In this document: piece after piece, positions 13,105 through 58,011 of the stretch
Numbering within the stretch: the stretch's first letter is position 1
How the letters are laid out: each line of letters opens with the position of its first letter
Source: TPA_inf: Saccharomyces
Lineage: Eukaryota
NCBI GenBank assembly: GCA_000146045.2
Contig: BK006937.2
Coordinates: 96,001-160,000, forward strand
DNA length: 64,000 bases
Direction of reading: 5' to 3'
The notes under the pieces: model-generated
Told to the model about the DNA's origin: nothing
Database searches by the model: none
Seen by the model: only the letters and a program-made list of their open reading frames with translations
Program-made: the position numbers and the translations under genes

Positions 13105-14670
13105 ATGACGACTCGTTTGCTCCAACTCACTCGTCCTCATTACAGATTATTATCCCTACCTCTCCAGAAACCCTTCAATATAAAAAGGCAGATGTCCGCT
13201 GCGAACCCTTCTCCATTTGGCAATTATTTGAACACGATCACTAAGTCCCTACAACAGAATTTACAAACATGCTTTCATTTCCAAGCAAAAGAAATCGATA
13301 TAATCGAATCTCCATCTCAGTTTTACGATCTCTTGAAGACAAAAATACTTAATTCACAAAATAGAATATTCATTGCGTCTCTGTATTTAGGCAAAAGCGA
13401 GACTGAGTTGGTGGACTGCATATCCCAGGCATTGACCAAGAACCCCAAGTTGAAAGTTTCTTTTCTACTTGATGGCCTTCGAGGAACAAGAGAATTGCCT
13501 TCCGCCTGTTCCGCCACTTTATTATCGTCTTTAGTAGCCAAATATGGGTCAGAGAGAGTGGATTGCCGATTGTACAAGACGCCTGCTTATCATGGTTGGA
13601 AAAAAGTCTTGGTTCCCAAGAGATTTAATGAAGGTTTAGGCTTACAACATATGAAAATATATGGGTTTGATAACGAGGTCATTCTTTCGGGAGCCAACCT
13701 TTCGAACGACTATTTCACCAACAGACAAGATAGATACTATCTCTTTAAATCTCGAAACTTCTCCAACTATTATTTTAAATTACATCAACTCATAAGTTCC
13801 TTCAGTTATCAGATTATAAAGCCAATGGTGGATGGTAGCATCAACATCATTTGGCCAGATTCGAATCCTACTGTTGAACCGACGAAAAATAAAAGGCTGT
13901 TTTTAAGGGAAGCATCTCAATTACTAGATGGCTTTTTAAAGAGTTCTAAACAAAGCCTCCCGATTACTGCCGTGGGTCAATTCTCCACATTAGTTTACCC
14001 AATTTCTCAATTCACTCCACTTTTTCCCAAATATAATGACAAATCGACCGAAAAAAGAACAATATTGTCATTGCTTTCCACTATAACAAGCAATGCCATT
14101 TCTTGGACGTTCACTGCAGGATACTTCAATATTTTGCCAGACATCAAAGCAAAACTGCTGGCAACGCCGGTTGCTGAGGCAAATGTAATAACAGCTTCCC
14201 CCTTTGCAAACGGCTTTTACCAATCAAAGGGCGTCTCATCAAATTTACCTGGTGCTTACTTGTACCTGTCAAAAAAATTTCTACAAGATGTATGTAGGTA
14301 CAGACAAGATCATGCTATTACATTAAGAGAATGGCAAAGAGGCGTAGTAAATAAGCCGAATGGTTGGTCATATCACGCAAAAGGTATTTGGCTTTCCGCT
14401 CGTGATAAAAATGATGCTAACAATTGGAAACCCTTTATCACGGTTATAGGATCTTCAAACTATACGAGAAGGGCGTATTCATTAGATTTGGAATCGAATG
14501 CTCTCATTATTACAAGAGATGAAGAGCTAAGAAAAAAAATGAAAGCAGAGTTAGATAATTTATTACAATATACAAAACCTGTAACTCTAGAAGACTTTCA
14601 ATCAGACCCAGAAAGACATGTTGGCACTGGTGTAAAGATAGCTACCTCCATTTTGGGTAAAAAACTTTAG
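13105..14670 (+). CDS. PGS1: Phosphatidylglycerolphosphate synthase of the phospholipase-D superfamily, mitochondrial
   Basis: The 521 aa length matches memory. Two HxK(x)4D PLD motifs are visible (HMKIYGFD...GANLSNDY and HAKGIWLS...GSSNYTRR). An N-terminal presequence-like region is present. Confidence 0.9.
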   Translation: MTTRLLQLTRPHYRLLSLPLQKPFNIKRQMSAANPSPFGNYLNTITKSLQQNLQTCFHFQAKEIDIIESPSQFYDLLKTKILNSQNRIFIASLYLGKSETELVDCISQALTKNPKLKVSFLLDGLRGTRELPSACSATLLSSLVAKYGSERVDCRLYKTPAYHGWKKVLVPKRFNEGLGLQHMKIYGFDNEVILSGANLSNDYFTNRQDRYYLFKSRNFSNYYFKLHQLISSFSYQIIKPMVDGSINIIWPDSNPTVEPTKNKRLFLREASQLLDGFLKSSKQSLPITAVGQFSTLVYPISQFTPLFPKYNDKSTEKRTILSLLSTITSNAISWTFTAGYFNILPDIKAKLLATPVAEANVITASPFANGFYQSKGVSSNLPGAYLYLSKKFLQDVCRYRQDHAITLREWQRGVVNKPNGWSYHAKGIWLSARDKNDANNWKPFITVIGSSNYTRRAYSLDLESNALIITRDEELRKKMKAELDNLLQYTKPVTLEDFQSDPERHVGTGVKIATSILGKKL

Positions 14671-14807
14671 ATTCTATTCTATCATAGTATGTCGCCTGTA
14701 AATATGGAAAAATAAAAGAAAAAATAGTAATAATAAATGCATTATCTAAAACTCCTTAAATTTGCAAACATCGCAAAGCCATTAAGGTAGAGAATGAGCT
14801 GACCTTG

Positions 14808-15675
14808 TTATAGTTTTCCTTTTGGCAACCGTGGTTTCCGTCCTACGTAAACATACTGAACTTGACAAAGTATGACCAATAAGGTGACAAATTGTATCAA
14901 TTTTACCCAAAAGGGCGTTGAATTAAATGGTATCTCGTAAAACAATGCATTGGTCGGTATTACCAGTCTACCTAATAAATCGATAGATTCAGCCAAAAAT
15001 GATATCAATGCAAACTTTGATGATAAACCTACTGTTGAGCATCCCATCCAGTTTATACTCATTTGAGGCACATACTTGAAACATTTAAGCAGATTTGCCA
15101 TTACCCACAAATAATTTATGTGTTCCAAATAGAAAACGCCAAATTTACCTGAATTTTTCAACGGTAAATTAGAGATGGAACAGCCATATGTAAATATGCC
15201 TAATACAAGGAACACACTTATAATTATTATGGAAGTAATGGAAATGCCCTGATAAATATGTTTAGTTGACCTATAATAGTATAACTGCCTTAAAACCATC
15301 ATGCAGCAACAGGAAACGCAAAAATCTTTTAGAATGAGGAAACTGGATATAGGTATACTACGGGCATCATTCAACGGATAAAAAAGTGGGAATCTTTGAG
15401 ACAGTTGTTCCCTCACCAGAGATGAATAACAATAATGCAACGCGCAATACAAGTACAGACCATTACCAACAAAATCTAGCAGAAATAAATCATATGAAAG
15501 CCCGTAAATAGATCGATGAAGTTTATTATAGCGCTTTTGACATAGAATGGCGATGATCTATGTAAGAAATGGAAGTTTTCTCCCTTAGTTAGTCAAACCT
15601 TTCATGTATACTTTCTCCTTCAATTATGCATACTGATAAAAAACCTGCCAAGCCCTGCAGAACAATAACAAGCAT
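14808..15675 (-). CDS. YCL002C: Spliced ORF for a multi-pass membrane protein of unknown function; exon 1 is 15634..15675 and exon 2 is 14808..15557
   Basis: On the minus strand ATGCTTGTTATTGTTCTGCAGGGCTTGGCAGGTTTTTTATCA is followed by GTATGC (rc at 15628..15633), a GACTAAC branchpoint-like element (around 15583) and an AG at 15558..15559. Exon 2 continues in frame (IIAILCQKRYNKL...) into the 214-aa track ORF. The spliced length is 263 aa and the protein is hydrophobic. Confidence 0.7.
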
Positions 15676-15915
15676 GTGAATGATTCAATATAATTGCTTC
15701 GCAGGGCTCCTCAACCTCTCCTCTGGAAAACCTTACCTCAATGAGGTTAAAAATTGTGGGTTTTTCGTTCGCAGAGGAAAAAAAAACTTGTCAAAACACG
15801 CCTCTGCAGTAGAACACGAATTATACATAAGAAAAATAACGATACAAGAAAGGCGATTTCGATTTGGGACTAAGTGTTACACGAAAGGCATAGAGTATCA
15901 AAAAAAGGAAGCAAG

Positions 15916-16482
15916 ATGGATTACGATAGCTCTGATACAATGAACGGTGGTTCAAGTAACCCCTTAATCACTAAGATGAATACAATGAAATTATTATATC
16001 AACACTATTTGGATAAAGTCACTCCTCACGCTAAGGAGAGGTGGGCTGTATTGGGTGGTTTGTTATGTTTGTTTATGGTTCGTATTACAATGGCCGAAGG
16101 CTGGTATGTGATTTGTTATGGTCTAGGTCTATTTTTATTGAATCAATTTTTAGCCTTTTTGACCCCAAAATTCGATATGTCCTTACAGCAAGATGAAGAA
16201 AACAACGAATTGGAAGCTGGAGAAAAATCAGAAGAATTCCGTCCATTCATCAGAAGATTACCAGAGTTCAAATTCTGGTATAACAGCATTAGAGCCACTG
16301 TCATTTCCCTCTTGTTGTCGCTATTTTCAATCTTCGATATTCCAGTATTTTGGCCCATCTTATTGATGTATTTCATATTATTGTTTTTTTTAACTATGAG
16401 AAGGCAGATTCAACATATGATAAAATATAGATATATACCCTTAGATATCGGTAAGAAGAAATATTCTCATTCTTCTAACTGA
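15916..16482 (+). CDS. RER1: Golgi-to-ER retrieval receptor Rer1, a four-TM membrane protein
   Basis: Starting at the internal Met of MDYDSSDTMNGGSSNPLITKMNTMKLLYQHYLDK gives the 188 aa I remember. Four hydrophobic segments are visible. The track ORF begins 14 codons upstream. Confidence 0.85.
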   Translation: MDYDSSDTMNGGSSNPLITKMNTMKLLYQHYLDKVTPHAKERWAVLGGLLCLFMVRITMAEGWYVICYGLGLFLLNQFLAFLTPKFDMSLQQDEENNELEAGEKSEEFRPFIRRLPEFKFWYNSIRATVISLLLSLFSIFDIPVFWPILLMYFILLFFLTMRRQIQHMIKYRYIPLDIGKKKYSHSSN

Positions 16483-17079
16483 TATACCCTGACTCCACAT
16501 ACCTATTCAACGAACACATTCGTATCTTAATTATATGTAAACAAAATTATATGATAGTTACAGAATAATTGTGATTATTTTCTCCTTCTACTCATCTTCT
16601 CTTATATTGGAAGAATACATGAAGTTATTGATTAAGCAAAATTGAAGGGAAGAGGCTCATTTTCTTCCATTTATAAATGGAGAGCTTGAGATGCCTCCAA
16701 TTGATAAATTTTTGTAAAGACTTTCAAGAAACATGTCTAAAAAGAATTGACAGCTTCGAACCTTTCTGCATAATTACTAATACCAAATTAGTGAGAAATG
16801 GGGTATGTCGAGGAATAAAGGATGCAAAAGAGAGAGTAATGTCATGCAAGTTGTGAGTTTGAAATGTTCACACGTTTATAATGTCCATACTCCGTGGCGT
16901 GCATGTGTTTTAGTGTATTAGTTTTCCAAGTTATTAAAGAACTTAGTAAATTTATCATCGAACGCATTTTGATTAAGTGGCACAATAGACTTCAATGGAA
17001 AATGAAAATCATATCTGTAGCAAAAACGACAGCGAAGATAACGGTTACACAATTATCACGTTGATTCGTCAACTTAAAG

Positions 17080-17541
17080 ATGACCTTTTTACAATTTATC
17101 AATAATAATAGACAAGAAGGACAAGGTTATATTTCAGAAAAATTATTCAAAACTAAGAAGAATGAGATGATAAGAAAAACAGTTACCAATTTAGTAGCTG
17201 TAAGATTAAAAAACTTATCCCACGAATTTGATGTAATAGAGAATTATCTGCGCTATATAGCTAGCACCAGTGAACATCTATTTACTGCTATTAAGCGCCA
17301 CTTTAACAAATGTGCCAGAAAACTTTTGAAAGAAGCAATCGACTCCAAATCAAACTCAGAAACTGCTACGGTGGTTCTGCAAGAAGGATTTTCTGGCATT
17401 TGCTTATTGAAAGCGTCTTCAATTATATTAAAACTAAAATTGAAGTTTCCAAAAAAGAAAGATAGAACTGATATTAGCAAATTGTGTGACAAGAAAGAAC
17501 GGATGACACAGTGGTTAGAAATTTCAATTTTGATGAACTGA
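17080..17541 (+). pseudogene. YCL001W-A: Dom34/Pelota-like fragment (N-terminal and central part), likely one half of a disrupted DOM34 paralog
   Basis: The 153-aa ORF resembles Pelota family proteins ([13 protein letters not shown], a KKK basic patch). It ends 186 bp before the next Pelota-like ORF, which lies in a different frame. Confidence 0.5.
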
Positions 17542-17769
17542 GAATAATAATATTATGCTCCCCTGGATTTTATGCGAAGACACTGCTGAAAAAATTTCTG
17601 ATATATGCAGAGAAGGAGCAAATAAGCCAGTTTTAAGGAACCGAGATAAGCTGTTTTCGCCCATTGTTCTAGTTCTACAAAATATCTACAGGGAATCGAT
17701 GAGGTTGTAAGAAATCCTGAATACTCTATGATAGTGCATAACACTAAAAAGTTGAAAGAATCCCGTATC

Positions 17770-18024
17770 ATGGACGATTTCCTTGAACATTTGAGCAAAG
17801 ACGATAACAAAGCATGGTATGGCGCGGAAGAAACCGAGAGAGCTGCAAAATTAGATGCAATAGAAACACTACTTATTACAGATAGTGTACTAAAAAGGAA
17901 CGACGTGAAAAAACGTGAAAAATACCTAGACCTAATAGAGAATAGTGGAAACAACAATGGCAAAATATTCGTACTCAGTACTTCAAAAATCACAGTGAGC
18001 AACTTGACAAACCAACAGATATAG
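17770..18024 (+). pseudogene. YCL001W-B: Dom34/Pelota C-terminal (eRF1 domain 3-like) fragment
   Basis: The 84-aa ORF from MDDFLEHLSKDDNKAWYGAEETERAAKLDAIETLLITDSVLK... resembles the C-terminal domain of Pelota/Dom34. It lies immediately downstream of YCL001W-A on the same strand. Confidence 0.5.
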
Positions 18025-18384
18025 GCTGTGTCTTAAAATATACCATCCAATACCTTGATGAACTTTTCAAAGATGACTAAAATAAGTGAAATTTCAACAT
18101 TAACTTCGAATTTTTTTCTTTTTATCTAACACTTGTCAAACAGAATATAAGGATTACTTGTCTTCTTTGCTACATATTGCTACCACTTCTATTACACAAT
18201 AGTTTCAATAGCTTGCAGCGTAGCTAAACTCTAAAATTTATCTAAATCACTCATATAAACCGAACCCTTCCCCTTCCGCTTATAGTACAGTACCTATACA
18301 TTTCATAAACATGGCATGGCGATCAGCGCCAAACAATATGGAAAATCCACAGAAAGCTATTCATTGAAAAAATAGTACAAATAA

Positions 18385-18501
18385 GTCACATGATGATATT
18401 TGATTTTATTATATTTTTAAAAAAAGTAAAAAATAAAAAGTAGTTTATTTTTAAAAAATAAAATTTAAAATATTAGTGTATTTGATTTCCGAAAGTTAAA
18501 A
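18385..18501. other. CEN3: Point centromere CEN3: CDEI GTCACATG at 18385..18392, CDEII 18393..18476 (84 bp, above 90% A+T), CDEIII TGTATTTGATTTCCGAAAGTTAAAA at 18477..18501
   Basis: The sequence has an exact CDEI consensus RTCACRTG, an 84-bp AT-rich spacer of the canonical length, and a CDEIII with the invariant central CCG (18489..18491) flanked by TGT...TTCCGAAA...AAAA. Together these match the CEN3 sequence. Confidence 0.95.
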
Positions 18502-21379
18502 AAGAAATAGTAAGAAATATATATTTCATTGAATGGATATATGAAACGTTTACTGGTGGAAGTTTTGCTCATATATTATTATTCAATAGAAGTAATAAAG
18601 AAAAAGTTGGTAAAGCAACTTAACAGTAAAAAGGTAATGATTGAAAAAGTTTTTGAACATCTAAGCTATATGTTGATGGGTTTACAATTTTACCATTAGT
18701 ACTCATGCCTATACTTTTCTGTTCGTCCTTAATGTCCGCGATTTAGAGCAATCATTGAAAGTACTAGATACATTTTAGCCAGAGAGGACTCGTTGACGTA
18801 GAATTAAAATTCAAATGAATTTCCGCCCCATTCATATACCCCAAATAACAAACATATTAAAACTTCATAATTATTCAAAATGTGGAGTAGTATAGAAGAG
18901 CAGTACCTTCAAAATTGATTTCTTCAGTTTCCCACCCGGGATCCACTTGTCATGCGGTGAGAATCGTATATTGCGTATAATCCGTGTTTCATCACCCACA
19001 TTATAGTACAAACCTACTGGTGTAACCATTATCATATTCATGACTTGTAGTTAAAAATCTTTCACGATAAATTGAGGAAAAAATCACGTTAAATAGTTTC
19101 ATATCATTCTTTAGTTAAAGTCTGTGCATAAAAAGAGGATCGGGTGTTGTACTCGTTCTATCAAAATATTGTTATTGTTGCATTATCACACGAATTACAA
19201 TCAATTTTTTTATCTACAGGCCAGAGTACCTGAAATAATGGAATTAGATTCAAAAAGGATAGCTTAATCGGTCTTTATACTAATTATTTTACGCCCAGAA
19301 CGAAACATAACGTGCATTAAATCTCACTGTCACAACATTGTATATAATGGTAGCATCGTACTAACTATTGGCATTCATTCAATATTATACAATTATCTTA
19401 TTAATACTTTCTCAAGTAGTCTTGAAGACCAGCATGTAGGAAGGTGATGATATGCTCCGTAAATAATTGGAAATATTGAGATATAATAACGATGACAATA
19501 CTAACAAAAGTAATAGGTGAGCTCCGCCAATTGATTGTTTTGTTTTGAATATATATTGATGCTTAACAATTTAGTCGTCAAATAGCACCTGCAAAACCTA
19601 CCTCTTACAGGCTTTTTTTCAATTTACTCCCCATGTGGGAGTTCTACGTAAACCACTTAGAATGCAGTTTCTCTTCTAAATAACATGTTATATCTTCTGA
19701 AGAAATTGAAACATATTGATTCTTATGGTGAGAGCAATTTATCAATGTTTTATCTTAAGTTCTACTGCCCTTGGAAATTATGTCCTTTGCTTCCCATTTT
19801 ATATGGAAGAAACAAATCAGTACAAAATGCTTGGTCATGTCATAAGCTTCATCGATTTATTGACTTCCCAACTCCTTCGGCTAATATGAATTTTTTTTTC
19901 TTTATAAGAGTTTGCTATGGAACTGTCTCGCTGTTTATTTCAACGTTTCTAAAGAAAATATCCTTTTTTATTTATGTGAACTTCACTGTATACTTTTAGT
20001 ACCTTTCGGTGGATTTCTTCTATTTTACTCGATCACTTTTCTTGACTGTGCACTGTCGGTACAATCCTTATTGTATTAACTTGCGAAGAATATTTAGTCG
20101 TTCAGTAGGGTTCTTTTGGAAGAAATGCTAGCTTAACATGAGTGTGATCTCTTCTAGAATTAACTCTTTTGTTTATCCATGTAATCTGTTACCAACACAT
20201 AAAATGCATTGATAGACCAAATATCAAAAGCGTGCAGGCATCTCTTATCTAACAGTAAGCAAAATTTTGCCTGCGCTTTACTTCAATTTTCCATTCTTTT
20301 TCTGAGTCTTCGTCAGTGCATATTTTTTTACTGACAGCACCATTAATCAATCAGCTCACCTGCGCATTTCCAATAATCGTGCTCATGAAGATCATAAAGA
20401 AACGTCCAAACATGAAAGTGCTCCTTTAGAATTTCTAAATCCAAACGATATATGTACCCCTCGTTGATTTGTCCTAAAATGAGTATAGCTTGATTTTCGT
20501 TATATATTTTTTCATAGTATTCAGAAGAGGAGAGAGGATGTGATTTATCAATATCTGCATTAAGTAATGAACTTTGCCCTCTACTGAGGATATTCCCACT
20601 AGAAAACTATAAAAAATGGGAGAAAGTCAATCGCTGTTCAGGATTCAACATAGTTGTTGACAACGTATGATAAGAAGGCCAGTCCAGTCCTCCTAAGTTA
20701 GGTTAAGGGAGGTAGGGAAAAACTGAAGTGTAATGATAATCGAGGATGAAAGTGTGCGGCCAGAAAAATCTTTTCTTTTTATATTAATCTGTAATAAATA
20801 CAAGACCTATATATTAAAGTAAAACAACATTGAATCAGATCGCATACTGGTGTAGACGTGAAGTAGACATATGATAATCGAGCAGGGTGCTCAATTTGGT
20901 GTGGGACACGTTTGGGAAGGTTAAAAGAAGAGGTATATCCGGATTACATTTATTTTTGGCGTATTTTAATAATTTACTAAAAGCGCGAATAGCTTCCCAT
21001 TAGCAACGCTCAGGGACTCTTTCTAATGTTTATAGTAATACTTTAATAAGATGAGTACCAATTGCTTCTCTATGAGGCACAATCCCTAACCAAACTTTTA
21101 TTTAGAATTACCGGTAAACTCCGTTTTCTTCATAGATTAAATATTTGGCTAAGACAACAAAATGTTCTTTCATTTTACCAAACGAGAAGGTGATAGCTGT
21201 ACGCCAGAAAAGAAGGTAAAAACTCTCGCCAATCCAGCAATACCTGTACCTCTAGTTTTCGATCGCATTATGTCATTATGTAAAACCAAGGAGAGAAGCA
21301 AGTTACGGTGTTTTCATATAGAATAATTTGAGAATTCTTAATAACATAAGATATATAATCACCACCATTCTTATGAGAT

Positions 21380-46700: not shown

Positions 46701-46771
46701 TGCGCAAGCCCGGAATCGAACCGGGGGCCCAACGATGGCAACGTTGGATTTTACCACTAAACCACTTGCGC
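46701..46771 (-). tRNA. tG(GCC)C: tRNA-Gly (anticodon GCC)
   Basis: The reverse complement reads GCGCAAGTGGTTTAGTGGTAAAATCCAACGTTGCCATCGTTGGGCCCCCGGTTCGATTCCGGGCTTGCGCA. The B-box GGTTCGATTCC is present and the anticodon is GCC. A T-tract lies on the coding strand downstream (lower coordinates). Confidence 0.92.
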
Positions 46772-46811
46772 TAGTAATCTTGATACATGATTCGAGAAAA
46801 GCAACAATATT

Positions 46812-47080
46812 ATGTATACGGAATATACTAGGAGTTCTCTTCAAGGATAGAGGAATCCTCAAAATGGAATCCATATTTCTACATACTAATATTACGATTA
46901 TCCCTTCTTCTATTTTATATGTTTCATTATCCTATTACATTATCAATCCTTGCACTTCAGCTTCCTCTAACTTCGATGACAGCTTCTCATAACTTATGTC
47001 ATCATCTTAACACCGTATATGATAATATATTGATAATATAACTATTAGTTGATAGACGATAGTGGATTTCTATTCCAACA
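46812..47080 (-). mobile_element. 5'-truncated Ty1 delta LTR of about 270 bp, inverted, starting about 40 bp upstream of tG(GCC)
   Basis: The element ends ...GATAGTGGATTTCTATTCCAACA and contains GGAATCCTCAAAATGGAATCCATATTTCTACATACTAATATTACG. It shares about 90% identity by eye with the delta at 28134..28465 over the shared part. Confidence 0.85.
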
Positions 47081-47633
47081 AGAACATCCTTGAAAGGTCG
47101 ACTATTAACATAAGAATAAGAGAGAGTGTGTGGCCGATGCTGTTGCTATAGCTCGGTCGTAGTTTAACACCACGGCATTATTCAGCTTTAAAACAATTGA
47201 ATTATAAACCTGCTTTTCTTACTACGAAAAGTGTTTCCCTTTAATAAATCTATTGTACATACTTTACAGTTGATAGTACCTTCACCATAAAAATATGCAA
47301 ACGCTTTTGTTATTGGGAACAGGAATACCAACCGTTCTCATGGAAAATAGCAAAGTGTAAAAGAATTTATTATCATCGAGTGATAAAGAATATCGCCAGA
47401 TCTTTACGGATATATATCGCTAAAAATATTTGTCGCCAATAAAAGATATGTCTAACGCTCCCTTTGCAGGTAGTTTTTTACTGGCATCGCCTTTTTACTG
47501 CAAATTATTGAAAATTTTCGAGCGAGAAAAAGGAACGAAAAGAGATGAGCTAAATTCAAATATCAAAGTACTGTCATAAGTGCTTTCTTTATCGACAAAT
47601 TACAAGCAGAAGAAACATTCACTTCACAATTAA

Positions 47634-48772: not shown

Positions 48773-51634
48773 TTATAAGTAATAACGTGGCTCATCAAAA
48801 ACATGGTAGAAGTGACCCCTCTCACCTTCGCCTAAAAACTTATCTGGAAATTTCATGTCCTCATATTCCGGTTCACTCATATGACCGTATTCATACATAG
48901 AATCCGAGTGCTCTACTAACGCTTGCTCACTCAAAACTTGGAACTTACCAACTTGTAGCTCCGTATCGGTTATCGTTCCTCTTGCAACTCTAGCATATCC
49001 TGTTCTTCTCAAGCCCCTATACAAGATATACTCACACCATCTATCATCGTCAGAAGGATCAATGTCGTGCATTCCGGATGTTTCACTAACGTACGTATTG
49101 TAGTTGCCTTCACCTGGATCAACAACTAAGTAACTTAATAAAATAGCTGGGCGAGTCGTATTGCCCATGAGCTTAGCCATGTAGTTACTTTGCAGTCTTC
49201 TATCCTCTTCATCCTCTTCTTGTCCACTATGGAATACAAAGACGTCAACGAGAGTGTCATTGTACGTTTGAAGTGTGGCATGAATGGCTGGCGCAAGTTC
49301 CCCAACTGGAGAGGGCAATAAATGATGCGTAGAATTTACGATAGGGAATTTAGAAAGAAGAACACAGCCCCAGGTATGTTTATTTGGACCTGGTCCGAAA
49401 TCTGCATACATATTCAAATCATGAGCTAGTTTGCTAGTTAGATCCCTGTTCCCCATGGTAATTCTTTGTGTATCTGTTTCTAGTAGACCTACCACATCTA
49501 GTTCCATATCTTTAATAAGGTTGATCATTCTGTCTTCAGATGCCCACATATCATTATCGAGACCAAAGTGGATAGTCCAAATACCAGCTGTAATCAACTG
49601 AGAATCTGGATGATAAGGCTGAGGAATTCCTGTAGGTCTAATATCATACACGAACCTAGCTGTTAGTGATAGCAGGGCCACGGCAAAGAAGAAAACATAA
49701 ATGAAGAATTTTTTGCCCATAGTCACCAGTTGAATGTTAAGGTTTTTGCATGTTAAAGCACCAATAATGATAAATGTGGAAGAAAAGGCAAGAACCGTCT
49801 CAATCTTCTCCCTCAGTACCCAGCCCATTGGAACAAATGCGTATGCAACGACCCAAACATGGGCAAGGACAAAGATAATATAAACGGAGAATGATAGGAC
49901 ATAAACCCATATGTTTTGAACTTGGCCTAATGCAGAAAAATACGAAGGAACTAACCAAAGCATAGCGATAGCGTACAATAAACCACCGAAAATATATTTA
50001 GGCCATTGTGTAATGCTTCTAGCTGAAAGTACAGCAGTGGATATGAGAAGCAACAAACATGGAACTAATGGCTTGCCCATAAACTTCACAGAACTCAAAG
50101 AAGCAAATAACATGACCGTACAAGTTAAGGCGCCCCAAGGCCATGGCAAGGGACCGTGTGATTCATTGTAACCTTCCCATGCCCAATAAATAGTAGTAGA
50201 AGAATCCGTCAATAACTGATGAATTCCGAATAACAACGAGCCAAAACCAACAGCCAAAAATAATTTGCCAATCAACGAAGCAGATTTTGCTTGAGCATTC
50301 CTTTTCCCTTCGAAATTAATTGAATTAACATAAGGCGACAGCATGCCGAATAAAACAGTAAGCACGAGAGCTGTCTTATTATACCCACCATTACGTTCAT
50401 CTAAAATGACCCAAGTTGGATTGTTGGTATAGAACCCCATTTTCAAGATCACAGATGCAACAAGACCTAACAGCCAAGTTAGAGCAAAAGAGAAACTAGT
50501 CTCCGCATTTGTGATATATCTTAGATTTTGTACAAACGTTGCAACGGTAATGGAAGTTCCCACAGCTACAGAAATCAACCTTAATTCTGGCATCTGAACA
50601 ATATAGGCACCAATGGCAATAATACCTCCTAAAAGTACACCATATTGCGTGAAGGCTTCAGAAACGAACGGCAGATATAAGAAAATGGGTCCCAAATAAC
50701 CCAATATTGCAGCTTCATAACCTGAGATTCCCATATACCATAGCGGGAAATGCCAAATACTACATAACAGGGACGTAACGTTCGACCAGAAAAGAAAACC
50801 GTTAAAAATATTTGTTAGTAAGTAAAAAAAAGAGTCAAACCTGAAATATGAACCAGTTGCGCTTCTAGCAACGGGTTTTTCCTTTTCAACCTTCTTTTCA
50901 CCACTTTTCTGCAATTCTGAACTTTTTTCTTCTCCATAATTTATGGGACTAGAGTCTCTAATTTGGAAAAAACTGGTATTACCGGGTTTCTCATTAAAAG
51001 CGAGAACAATATCTATCTTTTTGAAATCAGCGTAAGCAAATGCATCAAATGCAATATCTAAAAGAATCAGAGACCATTCGAAATAAGCATATATAGAATA
51101 TGCCCCAGCTCTCTGTTGGACGGAGTGCTGAATGTACCAGTAAATCATCGGGAACAATGTTCCAAAAAAAATTGTAGCAGTCAACCCTTTGTTCTTCGAA
51201 GTTAAAGGACTAGAATAGCGGGTAATCATTATATCCCATGGTAACGTTAAAACAATGTATGTGATCATAAATATATCATGAATATCGTGGTCATCTGTAC
51301 TTGTAATGTATACCCAACCACCGCAAGAGACTGTCCGGAGTACACCGACAAGGAAGCATACCTTAGATTGGTTCAAGTAGTAGTGACCTAGTAGCAGTAA
51401 AAATCTTGGAAAAGCAGTTAGAGCTATTAAGATTTGGAAAATAGAACGTTCCGGATAGCGGTCCCCGATAGTGGCTGATACACTAGGAAACCACTCATCT
51501 GGATACGTATAATGTGCATTGGTTACAATTTTATGAAAATGTAATGAATAACCAGTGACCAAAGCTGCAAAGAAGGCGGAGAATGCACAAATAGTATGAG
51601 CTATAGGGATGATCTTCCCATTGATGATCAGCAT
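48773..51634 (-). CDS. CWH43: GPI lipid-remodelling protein: an N-terminal PER1/Frag1-like multi-TM region fused to a C-terminal endonuclease/exonuclease/phosphatase-like domain
   Basis: The 953 aa length matches memory. The translation shows about 19 hydrophobic segments followed by a soluble C-terminal domain (DVVGLLETD...). Confidence 0.85.
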
Positions 51635-52237
51635 AACTGGCGGTGGATACCTTCTGTATTCCTGGTTACTTATTCCTCGAGAAATCGGACATTAAAAGGG
51701 TGCAAATACTGTGGAGAAATTATAAGTTACCAAGTCAAAAAGCGAATGAGAATCTATTGTTGCGATTTTTTTGGTTACTACTTCTTACCCGAACTAACTT
51801 TACATAATAAAAAAGCATGAAGCGCATATTCAGGGACTCAAAAATCCCAAACTGGCACTTCTGTATATACCGATGAGCATACTTTGATTGTAAAAAACAA
51901 CATTAAAAAGAACTGCAAACCTGAACCAAGAATACTTAATTTCAAAACCGAGAAATGAGGTACAACTTGTAGAAGTTCACTTAAACTTATTGAGCATACA
52001 ATCTCAACAAAACTAACTGCAAAGTTTGTTGCTATAGTCATATAGTAATACTAGCAGGAAGCCATTAATCAAAAAGAAACTCCATATAAAACGTAATAAA
52101 TATTATGAATAATAGTACAATATAAGAACAAAGACGAAGAAAATACATTATAACTGAAGTGCCAATATTAGAAAAAAAAAAGGTGGAATATCCTAGTGGA
52201 AAAATATCATCTATGCGGTGAAAGAATTAAATAGATA

Positions 52238-52903
52238 CTATGGATTGTTTCGATCTATCCTTTTATCTGCTGCTTGCCTTTTTTTTTCATTCTCCTTCTT
52301 CAGTCTTTTTCCATAGGCGAGTCCACAGGGACTACAAAGTTCCCTGTTTTGGTCGGGTCCACTACGCCATTGAATTGTCCAAGTGTCTTTACATTTAGAG
52401 CATTCCTTTATCTCACCATTTGGGAGGATTGTTTGTCTCTTTTCTCTTTTAGGACGACTAGTAGTCTTTTTGCTGTATTTCTTCGTAATACTGGCAGACC
52501 GACTAGTTCCTTGTGCACAACTATGGTAGCCTTCAAGATTGTTTGCTTCTTGGCTAGTCGTACGTCTCTCGGAATTGCATGCACTAGTTACACGATTCTT
52601 TGAGGGTGTAATTTCGTTCAAAGAGCTGGTTTTGTTCTTAACAATATTTCTTGTAAGATCTCTTAGTTGTTCGGCATTCTCAATTTTTTTTTCAACATCA
52701 ACAGCCCTTATTTGAGAAAAGGATACTTCAATAAATGAGCAACTTGCATAAACTCTTCCGCGTTCCTTATATGCCTTCTTTTTATCGTTTGACTTCCAGT
52801 CATCAATTTCTCTATTTAATAATAACGTTTTCTCCATATCTGACTTTTTAACTACTCTAGTTAAGAAGGAACTTCCAGAGTTGTCATAATTATTATATCG
52901 CAT
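52238..52903 (-). CDS. SRD1: GATA-type zinc-finger protein
   Basis: The zinc finger C-x2-C-x17-C-x2-C is visible as CSKCKDTWTIQWRSGPDQNRELCSPCGLAY, followed by a basic tail. The position fits. Confidence 0.8.
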   Translation of the reverse strand: MRYNNYDNSGSSFLTRVVKKSDMEKTLLLNREIDDWKSNDKKKAYKERGRVYASCSFIEVSFSQIRAVDVEKKIENAEQLRDLTRNIVKNKTSSLNEITPSKNRVTSACNSERRTTSQEANNLEGYHSCAQGTSRSASITKKYSKKTTSRPKREKRQTILPNGEIKECSKCKDTWTIQWRSGPDQNRELCSPCGLAYGKRLKKENEKKRQAADKRIDRNNP

Positions 52904-53326
52904 ACTAGCAATAGTAAATGTCTGGTTATTTACCTAGCAACCTCTTAACAAAGCGATAACAATGAAACAGCAATATAAGTCTATTTAATTGACAACATCA
53001 TTGATAAAAGTTTGAACAAGCGTCTAAAAGTCGAAGAAGTTCATTTCAAAGTTTTGTGTATCGAGCTTGATGATACTTATTTAGGGATCCGCTCTAGTTT
53101 ACTGTGATACAACTGAAAAACATTACAAAGCTATCGCGCCTGCATTCTCATATTAGTGGCGTATGTTTGTGTCACATTCGATACTTCTACATAATACAAT
53201 GACTGAACCCTTACCGCTGGCACAGGAATACCGCGCCGCGAAAGCAGGGTCTAGGAGAAACAATAGAATTCTTGGCGATGAGAGAGGGGAAGGCTTTAAT
53301 AAAAAAAAATAGCGCTTATCCGATTC

Positions 53327-53481
53327 TGTTGGAATAAGTGGCTATCAATATTTACATGTTGATATGGTAGTAAGGATATAAATGCTTATATTGAATATTT
53401 GGAATAAGCATCAACTATCACTTATTGAAAAGGACTCGAACAAAAAAATATGAAATGTCGAAAGCCACATCACTGAGAAGT
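53327..53481 (+). mobile_element. LTR fragment beginning TGTTGGAATAAG, probably a truncated delta/tau-type LTR interrupted by the next element
   Basis: The fragment starts with the canonical LTR terminus TGTTGGAATA and abuts a second TGTTGG start at 53482. This is a nested-insertion pattern. Confidence 0.5.
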
Positions 53482-53826
53482 TGTTGGATTGAAGCTCTAA
53501 AATGTCATCTTTTAGTAGTATTCGTGTTACTAGTATATTATCACATGCGGTGTAAAAAGATGACGTAAAGATTGAGAAACAGTCATCAACTGTTATGGAA
53601 GCTGAAATGCAAATATTGATAATGTAATAGGATAATGAAACGTATAAAATGAAAAAGAATAATAAAATATTATTATGTAGAAATACCGATTCCATTTTGA
53701 GAATTCCTATATCCTTGAGAAGAACTTCTAGTATATTCTGTATACATAATATTACTGCCTTTATCAACAATGGAATGCCAAAAATTATCAAAATATCACC
53801 CAATATTCAATTTTATTGTTGTGAAG
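53482..53826 (+). mobile_element. Diverged delta-like LTR of about 345 bp, ending about 95 bp upstream of tM(CAU)
   Basis: The LTR starts TGTTGGATTGAAG. It contains delta-like blocks (GGAAGCTGAAATGCAAATATTGATAATGTAATAGGATAATGAAACGTATAAAATG and GATTCCATTTTGAGAATTCCTATATCCTTGAGAAGAACTTCTAGTATATTCTGTATACATAATATTACTGCCTTTATCAACAATGGAATGCCAA). It is diverged from the deltas at 28134 and 55521. Confidence 0.75.
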
Positions 53827-53919
53827 ACATCAAGCCCTAGATATATATCATAGTAGGATAAAATAGTAGAATAAAACTATTCATATATCTACGTGAAAGC
53901 ATCAGAGATTGTAATGTTG

Positions 53920-53991
53920 AGCGCCGTGGCGCAGTGGAAGCGCGCAGGGCTCATAACCCTGATGTCCTCGGATCGAAACCGAGCGGCGCTA
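53920..53991 (+). tRNA. tM(CAU)C: Initiator tRNA-Met (anticodon CAU)
   Basis: The sequence AGCGCCGTGGCGCAGTGGAAGCGCGCAGGGCTCATAACCCTGATGTCCTCGGATCGAAACCGAGCGGCGCTA shows initiator features: an A1:U72 end, three G:C pairs in the anticodon stem, and GATCGAAAC in the T-loop region. A T-tract follows. Confidence 0.92.
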
Positions 53992-54246
53992 TTAAATTTT
54001 TTGAACTGTCCATTAATAATAATGGAACTGACGTCGTCAATTACCGGTAGCTTTTTTGCCCACATTTTTAATCATCTTTTAAGTATTTGAGTATTTGTTG
54101 TTCACTAGAGTTTTACTAATTAAGGTTCTGAGAAAATAAAGATATGCATTTAGAAAAGTCGGTTCTACACCGCAAATTTCTTTATTACAGAAACATTTTA
54201 TACAAAGAGGATACATAGTTATTGGAAAGAAAATCAATTATCTTTT

Positions 54247-54548
54247 TGTTGGGTAGTATGAATATTACTTGTACATTATCATATACAATATAAAAAGATG
54301 TCATAGAGTTGTGAAATATTTATTATATTTAATAAAAGCTGAAGCGCAATGATTGAAAACGTTTTAGGATGATTAATGATAAAGTACAAAATGAGGAGAA
54401 GAAATAATAATAACATAAAGTGGAAATACCGGTTATCTTTTAAGGATATTATAACCTGGAGGAAAACTTCCTGGGTTCTCTGTATATTCAACACTTTTCC
54501 GTTATCAAAAATAGAATCCCAACAGTATCCCCATTTTCGTCAATATCT
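54247..54548 (+). mobile_element. Degenerate LTR remnant, tau/delta-like, family uncertain
   Basis: The remnant starts TGTTGGGTAGTATG. It contains diverged counterparts of the LTR blocks (GCTGAAGCGCAATGATTGA, GGATATTATAACCTGGAGGAAAACTTCCTGGGTTCTCTGTATATTCAACA, AAAATAGAATCCCAACAG) in the same order as in delta. Confidence 0.45.
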
Positions 54549-55283
54549 CCATAACGACAAGGTCTTCTAGATACCATATAATGACAATAACCAAGCCCAC
54601 CATTTAGGTGGATTTTTTGTGTGGTTTTGAAATTAAAACATTTTTAGAGGAAAATTGTGATCACAGAATTTCACATTCCCAGTTACTTTAATAATATTCA
54701 TAGTTAGAGATGAAGAGGTACTATTAATATGAAGGTTAAGTATGAATCTTCTCATGCTTCTATAAGCGAGGGATATAAAACATCGCCAACTGTTTCATCT
54801 TATTTATTATCAATATTATGTGTGTTTGGAGCTTACTATACAGTTAATGTGATAATTAATATAACTCTTGTATAACTACCATATCAATGTTCAATTAATA
54901 GATCTTAAATCGGTTTCATTACTACCTGAACTGCATGTATGAAATTTCCTTCCACATTAGGCACATTCACATGTAATACGAGATGTACATCTATATGTGA
55001 TATTAGCATTTACACAGCAATCCTATATCACTATTAATGGCCACTTGTTCCAAAAAGTATATATTATGAAGCGTATTATTATTTTATACTCAGATAGCTG
55101 GTGCGATACGTTCGCAGATTTTGAGCGCAATGCAATGAGTATGACGGAAAGGTTCACTCATAATTTCAATAACTCAAGTTGTTTGAATTTAAAATACATT
55201 CCCCGTTAGATAAGCTATAAACATTGTTACTTGCGCTTGCGGCACATGTAATGTAGTTTCTTTCTTTTTCCAAGAAAAAAGAA

Positions 55284-55356
55284 AGCCCTGTAGGGGGCTC
55301 GAACCCCTAACCTTATGATTAAGAGTCATACGCGCTACCGATTGCGCCAACAAGGC
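55284..55356 (-). tRNA. tK(CUU)C: tRNA-Lys (anticodon CUU)
   Basis: The reverse complement reads GCCTTGTTGGCGCAATCGGTAGCGCGTATGACTCTTAATCATAAGGTTAGGGGTTCGAGCCCCCTACAGGGCT. The B-box GGTTCGAGCCC is present and the anticodon is CTT. A T-run lies on the coding strand downstream. Confidence 0.92.
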
Positions 55357-55454
55357 TCTTTAATTATGAAAAATTACGTTTAATAAGTGACTTAAAAATA
55401 TAAATACTGTTACTAAAATGTGAACTAAAACCTCAATATTATTTTCTGATCACT

Positions 55455-55520
55455 TGATGAATAGCTGGTAATTGTTGGATTCCATTGTTGGTAAAGGCTA
55501 TAATTTTACGTATATAGAAT
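55455..55520 (-). mobile_element. Short inverted delta terminal fragment, truncated by the adjacent full delta
   Basis: TGATGAATAGCTGGTAATTGTTGGATTCCATTGTTGGTAAAGGCTATAATT aligns with the delta end in reverse complement (TGAGAAATGGGTGAATGTTGAGATAATTGTTGGGATTCCATTGTTGATAAAGGCTATAATATT). Confidence 0.55.
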
Positions 55521-55851
55521 TGTTGGAATAAAAATCCACTATCGTCTATCAACTATAGTTATATTATCAATATATTATCATATACGGTGTTAAGATGATG
55601 ACATAAGTTATGAGAAGCTGTCATCGAAGTTAGAGGAAGCTGAAGTGCAAGGATTGATAATGTAATAGGATAATGAAACATATAAAACGGAATGAGGAAT
55701 AATCGTAATATTAGTATGTAGAAATATAGATTCCATTTTGAGGATTCCTATATCCTCGAGGAGAACTTCTAGTATATTCTGTATACATAATATTACTGCC
55801 TTTATCAATAATGGAATCCCAACAACTATCTGAAAATTCACGTGATTCTCA
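55521..55851 (+). mobile_element. Solo Ty1 delta LTR of about 331 bp, about 165 bp upstream of tK(CUU)
   Basis: The LTR runs TGTTGGAATAAAAATCCACTATCGTCTATCAACTATAGTTATATTATCAATATATTATCATATACGGTGTTAAGATGATGACATAAGTTATGAGAAGCTGTCATCGAAGTTAGAGGAAGCTGAAGTGCAAGG...CACGTGATTCTCA. It is a near-exact reverse complement of the 28134..28465 element. Confidence 0.92.
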
Positions 55852-56836
55852 TGTGAGTACATCAGAAAACAACCACCTAACAACCGTGTTTGAATGTTGA
55901 TCTGAAAACAAAAATTAATCTCTCGTACTTATTATGGATATTGTATTTTCTCAAAATTCCAAATGATTTTCTTGTTAGATGGTATTCACGGTCATCGGAA
56001 TCTCAGTTCAATATCACCAATTTGCTTATAAGGTTTATGCAAGATAACATGTTTGGTCTTGTTCCCAAGTATAACTTAAGAAAAAAAAATTACAATCCAA
56101 GAAAGGTAATACAGAATTCATAGCAATAATGGGGTCCATTTTCAATAGATAATGTACCTGGAAGAAAAGGGCTGACTAGGAAACAAAAAGAAAAACAAAA
56201 CTATGATACTCCATCAAACATAGGGAAATTTACTCGAATATGAAAAGTACAAATCTGTCAAAAGCACATCGTATATTGTCTTGGTTCCGCTTTTATTCAG
56301 AAGAATTACTGAAATGAAGAGGAATGACGTAATAAACAAACAACGATTCTGATATCAGAAAGACATCTTGAATATTCCTATGTAGTAATTAACTATCCCA
56401 GTACTTACAAACATAACTTGACGATGCACGCTACGATTTTTGTGTGTTTAAACTTTTGTTGGTTGGGACTCAAGAAGATCTTCTCTGAGATAATTGTAAT
56501 TAAATGTACTTTAGGAGTGTTCATGTATAATTTGCCTCTGCAAAAACTTAATAATGTATTTTAAAACTTGCATGTTGCTCTGTGAATCTGAATGTATGAT
56601 AATGCTACGATTACTCTAGGGAACTTCCTTTTTACATTTAAAATTTCCGAGATCCTCAGCTGACAAATAAATGTCATATCAAGACAATAAACGGTAGTGC
56701 TAAAGTAATTGCATATTAAACAGGCGCGACTAAAGCTTTCATCCCTTCTATTATTGCATAACCTGGCTATACATGAAAACACTTCTCACATTTGATTTAA
56801 GAAGTTTACTGTTCTAAGAAAATAAAGAACGTGATA

Positions 56837-57928
56837 ATGATGAATGAAGAGGATTCTACAGAAACGAAAAGCCTAGTCATAACTAATGGCATGTTTATCA
56901 TAGACGACATCGAGCGTAGTAAATATAATATTCACTATAAGAATGTCCCAGGAGGCGGAGGGACTTTTGCCATTTTGGGTGCATGCATAATATCTTCCGG
57001 CAATGTCACATCCAAAGGTTTGAAGTGGATAGTGGACAGAGGCTCTGACTTTCCAAAGGAAGTTATAAGGGAAATAGACTCATGGGGTACTGATGTGAGG
57101 TTTCGAGATGACTTTAGCAGATTAACTACCAAAGGGTTGAATTATTACGAGGGAAGTGATGATTTGAGAAAGTTCAAGTTTTTGACGCCGAAGAAGCAGA
57201 TTAACGTCGATGACTGGATTTCCACATTTGGGCAGAAGATAATTGATGAAATGCATGCGTTTCATTTGCTATGTTCTGGGTCTAGATGCTTAGACATAAT
57301 AAACGATCTGCTACGGGTGAAAAGTTCAAAGGGCACAAAACCAATCGTGATTTGGGAGCCATTCCCAGATCTTTGCGACTTTGATCATCAAAATGACATT
57401 AAAAGTGTAATGCAGAGGAACGATGTTACGGTAATATTATCTCCAAATGCCGAAGAATCAAGTCGCTTATTTGGTTTAAGTAGCAAGGAACCGACTAGTT
57501 TGGAAGAATGTCTAGCATTAGCGCATCGTTTCGATGATTTCATGGATGAAAACAATATGTGTATTCTACGATGCGGTGCCCTCGGAAGCATATCGGTAAG
57601 TGAGAAGTTTAAGAACGGACGAACCTATGACCATTTCCCCGCCTACCATTTCAAAACTCAGTCTAAAGTACTAGATCCTACTGGCGGGGGAAACTCGTTC
57701 CTTGGCGGCTTTGCAGTTTCTTATGCCCTAACGAAAAGCTTAGATATTGCTAGTATATGTGGGAACATCGCTGCAGGCGCAATAATTGAACAATTCGGAA
57801 TACCGAGGTACGATCCAATTGCTAAAACCTGGAACGGAATCACATTCTTGGATAGACTGAAATTTTACCTTTCACAGTCCGGTCTTCAATATAATATAAA
57901 CGATCTTTACAAAAGTCTAACACGATGA
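56837..57928 (+). CDS. MAK32: PfkB/ribokinase-family sugar kinase-like protein (maintenance of killer)
   Basis: The ORF is about 363 aa. The PfkB C-terminal motif DPTGGGNSFLGGF is visible and the position is adjacent to PET18. Confidence 0.8.
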   Translation: MMNEEDSTETKSLVITNGMFIIDDIERSKYNIHYKNVPGGGGTFAILGACIISSGNVTSKGLKWIVDRGSDFPKEVIREIDSWGTDVRFRDDFSRLTTKGLNYYEGSDDLRKFKFLTPKKQINVDDWISTFGQKIIDEMHAFHLLCSGSRCLDIINDLLRVKSSKGTKPIVIWEPFPDLCDFDHQNDIKSVMQRNDVTVILSPNAEESSRLFGLSSKEPTSLEECLALAHRFDDFMDENNMCILRCGALGSISVSEKFKNGRTYDHFPAYHFKTQSKVLDPTGGGNSFLGGFAVSYALTKSLDIASICGNIAAGAIIEQFGIPRYDPIAKTWNGITFLDRLKFYLSQSGLQYNINDLYKSLTR

Positions 57929-58011
57929 TCATATCAGCTTGTTCATTGCTCTTATTTTTCTGCAAAAATATACATATATATATATAAGTAAGTGTTATAT
58001 ACTACTTGAGA

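Follow-up and report, generated by a model that had tools for sequence, protein, structure and literature searches.

Between SRD1 and MAK32, the stretch of DNA analysed here (64 kb in full; hereafter the window) carries two tRNA genes and six LTR remnants, two of them upstream of tRNA-Met, two in the spacer between the tRNA genes and two upstream of tRNA-Lys. Five of the LTRs are numbered as pieces 1 to 5 in their order along the forward strand, and the sixth lies between pieces 3 and 4. The features are as follows:

53327–53481, + strand: piece 1, resembling the 5′ fragment of a decayed tau-type (Ty4-family) LTR, cut by piece 2 (partial tau similarity)
53482–53809, + strand: piece 2, full-length diverged delta of 328 bp, TG..CA, TGTTGG...TTCA (Ty1 LTR alignment)
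53920–53991, + strand: tRNA-Met(CAU), initiator type, Pol III target (ARAGORN; Rfam RF00005, 63.6 bits)
53992–54217, no strand: tRNA-Met 3′ flank, unique and without Ty origin (65–71% to the S. paradoxus spacer, with which it is collinear)
54220–54551, + strand: piece 3, full-length, heavily decayed delta of 332 bp (65–71% to deltas, z 17–33)
54695–55055, − strand: sixth LTR, full-length decayed tau (Ty4 LTR) of 361 bp (70–71% to tau, z 43–62)
55058–55282, no strand: tRNA-Lys 3′ flank, unique (~68% to the collinear segment 8051–7849 of S. paradoxus L016)
55284–55356, − strand: tRNA-Lys(CUU), Pol III target (Rfam RF00005, 67.8 bits; ARAGORN gives 55283–55357)
55455–55520, − strand: piece 4, inverted 3′-terminal 66 bp of a delta, truncated at the piece 5 boundary (delta similarity)
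55521–55851, + strand: piece 5, intact solo delta of 331 bp, TGTTGG...TCTCA (delta alignment)

The two tRNA genes were all that an Rfam search of positions 52900–56900 returned, and they are convergent, tRNA-Met on the + strand being followed by tRNA-Lys on the − strand. An earlier reading of the bare letters (the sequence-only reading) had taken them as divergent, with every LTR piece between them and within their upstream windows. Pieces 1, 2, 4 and 5 instead lie outside the pair, each upstream of one tRNA gene (439–593 and 111–438 bp upstream of tRNA-Met for pieces 1 and 2, 99–164 and 165–495 bp upstream of tRNA-Lys for pieces 4 and 5), and piece 3 lies downstream of both genes, at 229 bp from tRNA-Met and 732 bp from tRNA-Lys. 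The tRNA-Met gene is kept in S. paradoxus, S. mikatae, S. kudriavzevii and S. eubayanus, and the tRNA-Lys gene is 97–98% conserved across the other Saccharomyces species. The sequence directly upstream of both genes is unique and conserved, and the 3′ flank of tRNA-Met showed no LTR or Ty1-internal similarity. A Ty3 sigma would be expected 16–19 bp upstream of a tRNA gene; a search of the window with a 21-mer of its 5′ end, allowing up to 3 mismatches, found no match, which counts as a weak negative. No long ORFs were found between SRD1 and MAK32.

Delta similarity was assessed with the LTR of a full-length Ty1 in L024 and with a solo LTR in L008. The L024 element consists of a target-site duplication (TSD, GATTC), an LTR, a PBS (TGGTAGCGCC) complementary to tRNAiMet, a PPT (GGGTGGTA) and a second LTR, and its PBS is exactly complemented by the 3′ end of the window's tRNA-Met(CAU) plus CCA. 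The tau reference shares 99.5% identity with the LTR of a copia-type element of 6.2 kb in L026, a Ty4 with 371-bp LTRs, the pol order Pol_BBD-rve-RVT_2 and a PBS (TGGCGACCCCAGTGAGGG) that complements the 3′ end of the window's tRNA-Asn plus CCA. These references covered the LTRs of Ty1 and Ty4, and delta calls stand for Ty1 and Ty2 jointly. The LEU2-proximal element of L022, tried as a Ty2 reference, turned out to be a Ty1 (99.2% to the Ty1 of L004), and the split between Ty1 and Ty2 was therefore dropped. When run with the Ty1 and Ty4 elements, the pieces do align to Ty LTRs, as had been proposed: pieces 2, 3, 4 and 5 are homologous to delta, pieces 2, 3 and 5 at about the usual delta length of 330–335 bp (328, 332 and 331 bp) and piece 4 as a 66-bp fragment. 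No Ty-internal remnants were detected in the seven gap segments by comparison with a complete Ty1, and the LTRs of the window are solo LTRs, without adjacent Ty-internal sequence.

On the upstream side of tRNA-Met, piece 1, an LTR start fragment in the sequence-only reading, matches no delta (z ~1). It is tau-like over its first 70–110 nt (identity 71% across the leading 73 nt and 64% across 108–126 nt; z 6.5, a score reached by 0 of 300 shuffles), and its second half, 53400–53481, matches nothing. The positional orthologue of piece 1 in S. paradoxus is 82–83% identical to tau positions 1–69 (E 2e-13). Piece 1 resembles a tau-type 5′ fragment, an assignment made on modest similarity. Piece 2 aligns over its positions 1–328 to positions 1–333 of the Ty1 LTR (78%, z 97), and its identity is 77–85% to other deltas (z ~90–130), 80–85% to piece 5 and 82–83% to both S. 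paradoxus deltas; judged by these alignments, it is a delta of an S. paradoxus-like subfamily. Its delta homology stops at 53809 and not, as previously given, at 53826, and its flanks, GAAGT to the left and ATTTT to the right, do not form a perfect TSD. The S. paradoxus delta at 6697–7016 resembles piece 2 in position and junction and is a candidate orthologue; the two S. paradoxus deltas are, however, equally close to piece 2 and 93% identical to each other.

In the spacer, piece 3 had been described as a tau- or delta-like remnant at 54247–54548. The delta half of this description stands (71% to the Ty1 LTR reference, z 32), but no similarity to tau was found (z <1), and the element is a complete delta whose onset lies at ~54220 (TATTGGAAAG) rather than at the internal TGTTGGG at 54247. 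Its start is mutated (TATTGG...TCCA), the homology beginning at delta position 3 (54222), and its flanks mismatch (ATAGT/TAACG). The sixth LTR, at 54695–55055, aligns to positions 3–369 of the 371-bp tau; its site is empty (single copy) in S. paradoxus, and the flanks AATAA/AGTAT, which agree at three of five positions, look like what may be a degenerate TSD. An origin from a Tsu4-like or other Ty4 relative was rejected: the nearest sequence is the S. cerevisiae tau (70%), and identity is only 61–72% to the L025 LTR and to tau-like pieces of S. paradoxus, S. eubayanus and S. mikatae. Orthology to the S. paradoxus tau at L016 7016–7263 was likewise discarded, the orthologous site being empty in that species; this other tau, situated across tRNA-Lys from the sixth LTR, has 95% identity to modern tau. 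Both spacer LTRs lie downstream of both tRNA genes, the disfavoured side, which speaks against the explanation of the locus that we favour below.

The spacer also bears on the sequence-only reading taken at its word, namely five pieces between divergent tRNA genes, all upstream of them, and an LTR-free block of about 700 bp (54560–55280) of possibly old Ty-internal or unique sequence. Five LTR-derived pieces, of the six present, do lie approximately where they had been placed, although some of their ends and identities required correction, and segments 54628–54693 (76% to S. paradoxus) and 55058–55282 of the block are indeed unique and conserved. The block nevertheless contains the 361-bp tau (z 43–62), which had been missed, and Ty1-internal similarity is absent from every gap segment. 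Together with the convergence of the tRNA genes and the position of piece 3, downstream of both, this refutes the literal version in those details and makes it very improbable as a whole.

On the upstream side of tRNA-Lys, piece 4 corresponds to delta positions ~256–333 in inverted orientation, with identities of 83–91% (z 15–24) that range from 83% to the Ty1 LTR reference (z 15) to 91% to positions 257–309 of the delta at 28134 (z 24). L003 and L006 have lost most of this piece through a deletion between 10-bp repeats (AATTGTTGGA). Piece 5 is 94–95% identical to the solo deltas at 28134–28470 and 46786–47081, and only 80–81% identical to the active Ty1 LTR (z 104). From these identities we class it as a solo delta of an older subfamily; the near-identity to the 28134 delta once attributed to it amounts to 94.3–95.1%. 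Piece 5 is without a TSD because its flanks, AGAAT and TGTGA, differ, and it hosts further insertions in L004 and L009.

The LTR cluster of the window is the right arm transposition hotspot (RAHS) of S. cerevisiae chromosome III. It lies between SRD1 and MAK32, centromere-distal to YCRCdelta6 and YCRCdelta7, as RAHS does, and the RAHS interval at SGD 146628–152734 corresponds to window positions 50628–56734. From the distances that Hoang et al. (PMC2996329) give, RAHS has its edge at 151834, while delta7 and delta6 lie at 143063 and 124449; shifted by +96000, the LTR ends 55851, 47081 and 28470 of the window agree with these positions to within ~20 bp. The locus is thus a real, ordinary and already known one, since the cluster is the published RAHS, which has been in print since Warmington et al. 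1987 (Nucleic Acids Res 15:8963) and was sequenced again by Hoang et al. 2010 (PMC2996329; GenBank GU220389). According to the latter study, RAHS is a Ty cluster, chromosome III of the reference is a composite sequence, and the RAHS of true S288C differs from it, being 8.4 kb longer and holding two tandem Ty1. This could suggest that the arrangement seen here is an artefact of a reference pieced together from a number of non-S288C strains and that no real strain has it. Such an artefact is extremely unlikely and is refuted by independent sequences: L001 and L002 are collinear with the window over 52000–58000 at 99.0–99.1% identity, and L024 has flanks 99.9% identical to those of the window and differs by one additional Ty1.

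Comparison of the window with 11 other S. cerevisiae assemblies bore out the anticipated presence/absence polymorphism, with nine structural alleles among the 12 sequences; these counts are not population frequencies, because the compared strains were chosen to differ. At least six extra clean insertions have perfect 5-bp TSDs (TAATA, ATAAT, AGAAT, GATTC, CCATT and AACGG), all of them ~120–380 bp upstream of tRNA-Met or tRNA-Lys, with 121–333 bp as the range for the six whose TSDs are listed here. Among them is a live full-length Ty1 (L024, GATTC), and perfect duplications of ATAAT, GATTC, CCATT and AACGG flank polymorphic deltas or Ty1 of other strains. The 5-mer ATAAT at 53746–53750 has been used as an insertion site in both orientations. 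Young tau solo LTRs of 371 bp, with TGTTG...CAACA termini and 5-bp TSDs, lie within the cluster in L007 and L010. L004, L005 and L009 contain a hybrid delta that is built as recombination between an old and a new LTR would predict, and in L009 there are also tau debris in palindromic arrangement and a duplicated segment of piece 5. The TSDs looked for at this locus are therefore present around the insertions of other strains but not around the LTRs of the window, none of which (0 of 6) has a perfect 5-bp TSD. For the window deltas this loss is as expected of old or recombinant solo LTRs, and the independent integration of each window LTR is therefore something that we infer rather than observe.

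The distribution of the pieces across species differs from one to another. The junction of piece 1 with the SRD1-side flank is present in S. paradoxus too; piece 3 and the sixth LTR are clean insertions relative to S. paradoxus and are absent there; and the extra insertions at the locus are strain-specific. A ranking of ages by divergence, as the sequence-only reading had it, does not survive this comparison: the two most decayed LTRs are missing in S. paradoxus, with which the piece 1 junction is common. That divergence does not track age here counts against the explanation favoured below, which has to call on extinct or divergent subfamilies, or on gene conversion, to account for it; the pattern hints at extinct divergent Ty sublineages or at gene conversion between LTRs. 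The orientation of the tRNA cassette varies as well. The order tM+ tK−, seen in S. cerevisiae and S. mikatae, is inverted to tK+ tM− in both S. paradoxus and S. eubayanus, and S. kudriavzevii has tM− tK−; S. arboricola is uninformative, since an assembly gap of 1814 N covers the locus. In S. cerevisiae the cassette is bounded by deltas on opposite strands (piece 2 on +, piece 4 on −). In view of these differing orders and of the oppositely oriented deltas, we tentatively raise the possibility, without preferring it, that the cassette, together with its conserved flanks, has flipped more than once in Saccharomyces and that the hotspot could be a recurrent LTR-mediated inversion switch predating the split of S. 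cerevisiae and S. paradoxus.

Some of the same observations could be explained by only two or three original Ty elements. Local duplication, inversion and unequal recombination would then have multiplied, inverted and truncated their LTRs, in place of six or more separate integrations. The want of a perfect TSD at any window LTR, the direct abutment of pieces 4 and 5 without a TSD, the inversion of the cassette between species, and the palindromic debris and duplicated segment of L009 all fit such a history. The LTRs, however, fall into at least four distinct sequence groups (piece 1, the old tau, piece 2, piece 3 and pieces 4/5; pairwise identity 63–83%), and because of these groups and of their differing phylogenetic distributions the pieces are not recent copies of one another. 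Clean, independent, TSD-flanked integrations are moreover seen here in other strains, and we consider a history of few integrations and many rearrangements unlikely.

It is highly probable that RAHS results from repeated Ty1/Ty2-type and Ty4-type integrations at two convergent Pol III genes, followed by LTR recombination. The central proposal of the sequence-only reading, that of repeated, temporally separated integrations and LTR recombination at one hotspot, is supported in this form by the LTR alignments, the TSDs of other strains, the polymorphism, the species distribution and the literature; all the checks that this reading had put forward come out in its favour. tRNA-Met and tRNA-Lys(CUU) would have drawn Ty1/Ty2-type and Ty4-type integrations over millions of years, newer elements landing inside older LTRs, and most full elements would later have been cut to solo LTRs via LTR–LTR recombination. 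Recombination between non-sister LTRs and small deletions may then have removed TSDs and truncated pieces, the specific events being reconstructed. Ty1 integrase is tethered to the AC40 subunit of Pol III, and Ty1 inserts into nucleosomes, with nucleosomal periodicity, over ~1 kb on the upstream side of Pol III genes; Ty4, too, occurs beside tRNA genes. Targeting of this kind would account for the choice of site, and a scan of the whole 64-kb window found LTR-like DNA only at <500 bp from tRNA genes.

The value of these results as new knowledge is small, as tRNA-linked Ty hotspots and RAHS have been textbook matter since 1987, and RAHS serves as a standard substrate in work on non-allelic recombination and on fragile sites. 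What is gained in practice is annotation detail, with the sixth LTR at 54695–55055, a full delta at 54220–54551 and a tau-type assignment for piece 1. The inversion of the tRNA pair between species offers a modest lead for work on LTR-mediated micro-rearrangements. It is also worth keeping in mind that real S288C, with its two Ty1 elements here, does not have the reference allele.

Compared with RAHS as published, the window is the same locus with the same Ty LTR cluster, the strain polymorphism and role as a substrate of non-allelic recombination of which were known, and there is no difference in kind; the laboratory S288C carries the two tandem Ty1 (YCRWTy1-2 and -3), whereas the window is the reference allele, without a full-length Ty1. 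The other Ty clusters of chromosome III, LAHS and FRAHS, likewise consist of nested LTRs and Ty beside tRNA genes and are polymorphic and recombinogenic, but they are separate loci, LAHS lying just to the left of the window; LAHS in L022 carries a Ty1 ~99% (99.2%) identical to the Ty1 in RAHS of L004. Ty4 tau is matched end to end by the sixth LTR, which is however ~30% diverged and 10 bp shorter, with mutated termini (TTTTGG...TGAATA). Finally, the positions of all six clean strain-specific insertions and of four of the six window LTRs, each 99–593 bp upstream of a tRNA gene, agree with the Pol III targeting of Ty1/Ty2, whereas two old LTRs downstream of both tRNA genes are at variance with such upstream targeting, an arrangement that is unusual, although not unheard of, for Ty1 and Ty4.

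The stretch between SRD1 and MAK32 holds two tRNA genes and six LTR remnants, and the remnants account for 1573 of the cluster's 2525 bases. Its delta (Ty1/Ty2 LTR) pieces were identified by self-comparison of the window and by alignments with shuffle controls, and the features are as follows.

53327-53481, piece 1, tau-like (Ty4 LTR) over its first 70-110 nt (z 6.5, 0 of 300 shuffles)
53482-53809, piece 2, complete 328-bp delta, 77-85% identical to other deltas
53920-53991, + strand, tRNA-Met(CAU) (ARAGORN, Rfam)
54220-54551, piece 3, complete, heavily decayed delta (65-71%, z 17-33 against deltas)
54695-55055, - strand, old tau, full-length, about 30% decayed (tau positions 3-369, z 43-62)
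55284-55356, - strand, tRNA-Lys(CUU) (ARAGORN, Rfam)
55455-55520, piece 4, inverted, terminal 66 bp of a delta
55521-55851, piece 5, intact 331-bp delta

Four delta-type pieces (53482-53809, 54220-54551, 55455-55520 and 55521-55851) were confirmed, two of them with altered boundaries. Piece 2 had been extended to 53826, but its delta homology stops at 53809; piece 3 had been started at an internal TGTTGGG (54247), whereas its true start is a mutated TATTGGAAAG near 54220, and shuffle-controlled alignment detected no tau similarity in it (z<1). Elsewhere in the window, the solo deltas 28134-28470 and 46786-47081 show 94-95% identity to piece 5; for the LTR of an active Ty1 the figure is 80-81%. 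The block 54560-55280, described as free of LTRs in the sequence-only reading, contains the full-length old tau; its remaining segments, 54628-54693 and 55058-55282, are unique and are conserved with S. paradoxus. Piece 1, previously called an LTR start fragment, gave no delta match. We favour reading it as an old fragment of tau type, because its start is tau-like and S. paradoxus, where the junction with the flank on the SRD1 side is the same, has a fragment there that is 82-83% identical to tau 1-69.

LTR references were drawn from other strains, found through contigs with coding regions for the SRD1, MAK32 and BUD3 proteins of the window; the S. cerevisiae assemblies so obtained were L001-L010, L018-L023 and L024. 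The last carries a full-length Ty1 within this cluster, with target-site duplication GATTC, two LTRs, primer-binding site (PBS) TGGTAGCGCC and polypurine tract GGGTGGTA. Solo LTRs of 371 bp with TGTTG...CAACA termini and perfect duplications were found in L007 and L010. A pattern joining the 3' end of this LTR to the reverse complement of the 3' end of the window's tRNA-Asn retrieved a 6.2-kb element flanked on either side by the 371-bp LTR, at 99.5% identity, with an 18-nt PBS for tRNA-Asn. Its pol order is protease-integrase-reverse transcriptase; therefore the element is Ty4 and the 371-bp LTR is tau. The tRNA-Asn(GUU) gene (31717-31790), the primer tRNA of Ty4 by its 18-nt match to the PBS of this element (contig L026), is the only one of the window's five tRNA genes without LTR-like sequence within 500 bp.

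The tRNA pair had been taken as divergent; with tRNA-Met on the plus and tRNA-Lys on the minus strand, the genes face each other and are thus convergent. The proposal that all pieces occupy upstream windows holds for four of them: pieces 1 and 2 are 111-593 bp from tRNA-Met, and pieces 4 and 5 are 99-495 bp from tRNA-Lys, on the upstream side in both cases. It fails for piece 3 and the old tau, which are in the inter-tRNA spacer, downstream of both genes. Throughout the 64-kb window, LTR-like DNA is confined to within 500 bp of tRNA genes. The solo delta YCRCdelta7 (46786-47081), its final ~40 bases absent or replaced, ends just 15 bp upstream of tRNA-Gly(GCC) (46701-46771), a proximity unusual for a Ty1-type LTR. 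The AC40 subunit tethers Ty1 integrase to Pol III, and Ty1 inserts into nucleosomes on the upstream side of Pol III-transcribed genes; Ty4, too, is found near tRNA genes, and LTR-LTR recombination yields solo LTRs. The tRNA-Met gene shows the hallmarks of an initiator, namely the A1:U72 pair and a GGG/CCC stem below the anticodon. With CCA added, its 3' end is perfectly complementary to the PBS TGGTAGCGCC (L024 2957-2966) of the Ty1 inserted about 1.5 kb away in strain L024; the target gene at this hotspot thus specifies the very tRNA that primes the incoming element.

In the window, no LTR retains a perfect 5-bp duplication. The sequences on either side of the old tau, AATAA and AGTAT, agree at three of five positions, and the site is single-copy in S. 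paradoxus. As to the specific events behind the window's present arrangement, we infer that LTRs from separate insertions recombined, or that sequence was deleted, at pieces 4 and 5, because the flanks of piece 5 (AGAAT/TGTGA) are mismatched and the inverted delta it abuts has lost its remainder.

Strain comparison revealed nine structural alleles among twelve sequences, window included, counts that are not population frequencies as the look-up favours dissimilar loci. The locus takes up new Ty1, delta and tau insertions; those listed here are clean, and each has a perfect target-site duplication:

53660-53664, tau, duplication TAATA (L007)
53746-53750, inverted Ty1-type delta, duplication ATAAT (L008)
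55478-55482, full-length Ty1, duplication GATTC (L024)
55483-55487, delta, duplication CCATT (L009)
55516-55520, inverted tau, duplication AGAAT (L010)
55686-55690, delta, duplication AACGG (L009)

All clean strain-specific insertions obey the upstream rule, lying 121-333 bp upstream of tRNA-Met or tRNA-Lys with none in the spacer, and old LTRs serve as their landing sites. At the ATAAT site, L004, L005 and L009 carry a hybrid delta oriented opposite to the inverted delta of L008; such a structure is what would arise if the old delta recombined with a newcomer's 3' LTR. The use of this site in both orientations is hotspot behaviour at nucleotide resolution. Small deletions also arise: L003 and L006 lack 48 bp at 55470-55527, between two 10-bp direct repeats (AATTGTTGGA), which takes out most of piece 4. 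In L004, a 5046-bp Ty1 (2059-7104; reverse-complement 13563-18608), 5'-truncated and lacking its 5' LTR and ~870 bp of gag, sits inside piece 5 at about window 55733. It meets the flank via a 27-nt poly(T)-rich run, with a duplication of 8-9 bp (ATAGATTC) rather than 5 bp; aberrant insertion of cDNA or an artefact of assembly may account for it. In L009, a near-perfect palindrome of two inverted tau 3' end copies (reverse-complement 11147-11237) stands in place of most of pieces 1 and 2, followed by the 3' part of a Ty1-type delta joined at the ATAAT site.

The tRNA pair lies between SRD1 and MAK32, each time with LTR debris, in S. paradoxus, S. mikatae, S. kudriavzevii and S. eubayanus. That integrations were spread over time, as first suggested, is borne out, because the spacer alignment shows piece 3 and the old tau as cleanly inserted with respect to S. 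paradoxus, which does share the piece 1 junction; divergence from modern LTRs gives the wrong order of integrations. Piece 2 is 82-83% identical to two S. paradoxus deltas (L016 6697-7016 and 7264-7581) versus 75-77% to the S. cerevisiae deltas examined, and shares diagnostic motifs with both (e.g. TGAA.TTCTAAT.TCATCT, CACATGCGGTG and AAAGATTGAGAAACAGTC). It is a member of a delta subfamily seen in S. paradoxus and may be orthologous to one of that species' deltas. Comparison of the tRNA cassette (window 53920-55356) with contigs L016 7755-8470, L017 7980-8663, L012 7896-8517 and L014 6114-8560 showed that its orientation relative to SRD1/MAK32 is the same in S. cerevisiae and S. mikatae and inverted in S. 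paradoxus, where the independent short-read contig L011 agrees, and in S. eubayanus. In S. kudriavzevii the two tRNA genes share the minus strand and are separated by a DUP-family gene. The accepted species tree needs at least two cassette inversions, and the S. cerevisiae cassette is bounded by deltas of opposite orientation. L011, a S. paradoxus-like contig, terminates inside the tRNA-Met gene, and in the S. arboricola assembly (L027 6697-8510) precisely this locus is replaced by 1.8 kb of N, which illustrates how the cluster breaks assemblies.

The sequence-only observation is thus confirmed in part, and its core interpretation, repeated Ty integration at one hotspot, is supported; the useful output is the set of annotation corrections. 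The cluster is a classical, already known locus rediscovered, since the 'right arm transposition hotspot (RAHS)' of chromosome III has been published at a matching position (SGD 146628-152734; Hoang et al. 2010, PMC2996329, citing Warmington et al. 1987), and, with an offset of +96000, the deltas of the window fit the distances those authors give for YCRCdelta6 and YCRCdelta7. The same authors show that chromosome III of the reference was put together from strains other than S288C; the real S288C carries two tandem Ty1 elements at RAHS (GU220389), a pair also mentioned in a later paper, and RAHS is often a partner in non-allelic recombination (PMC2996329).
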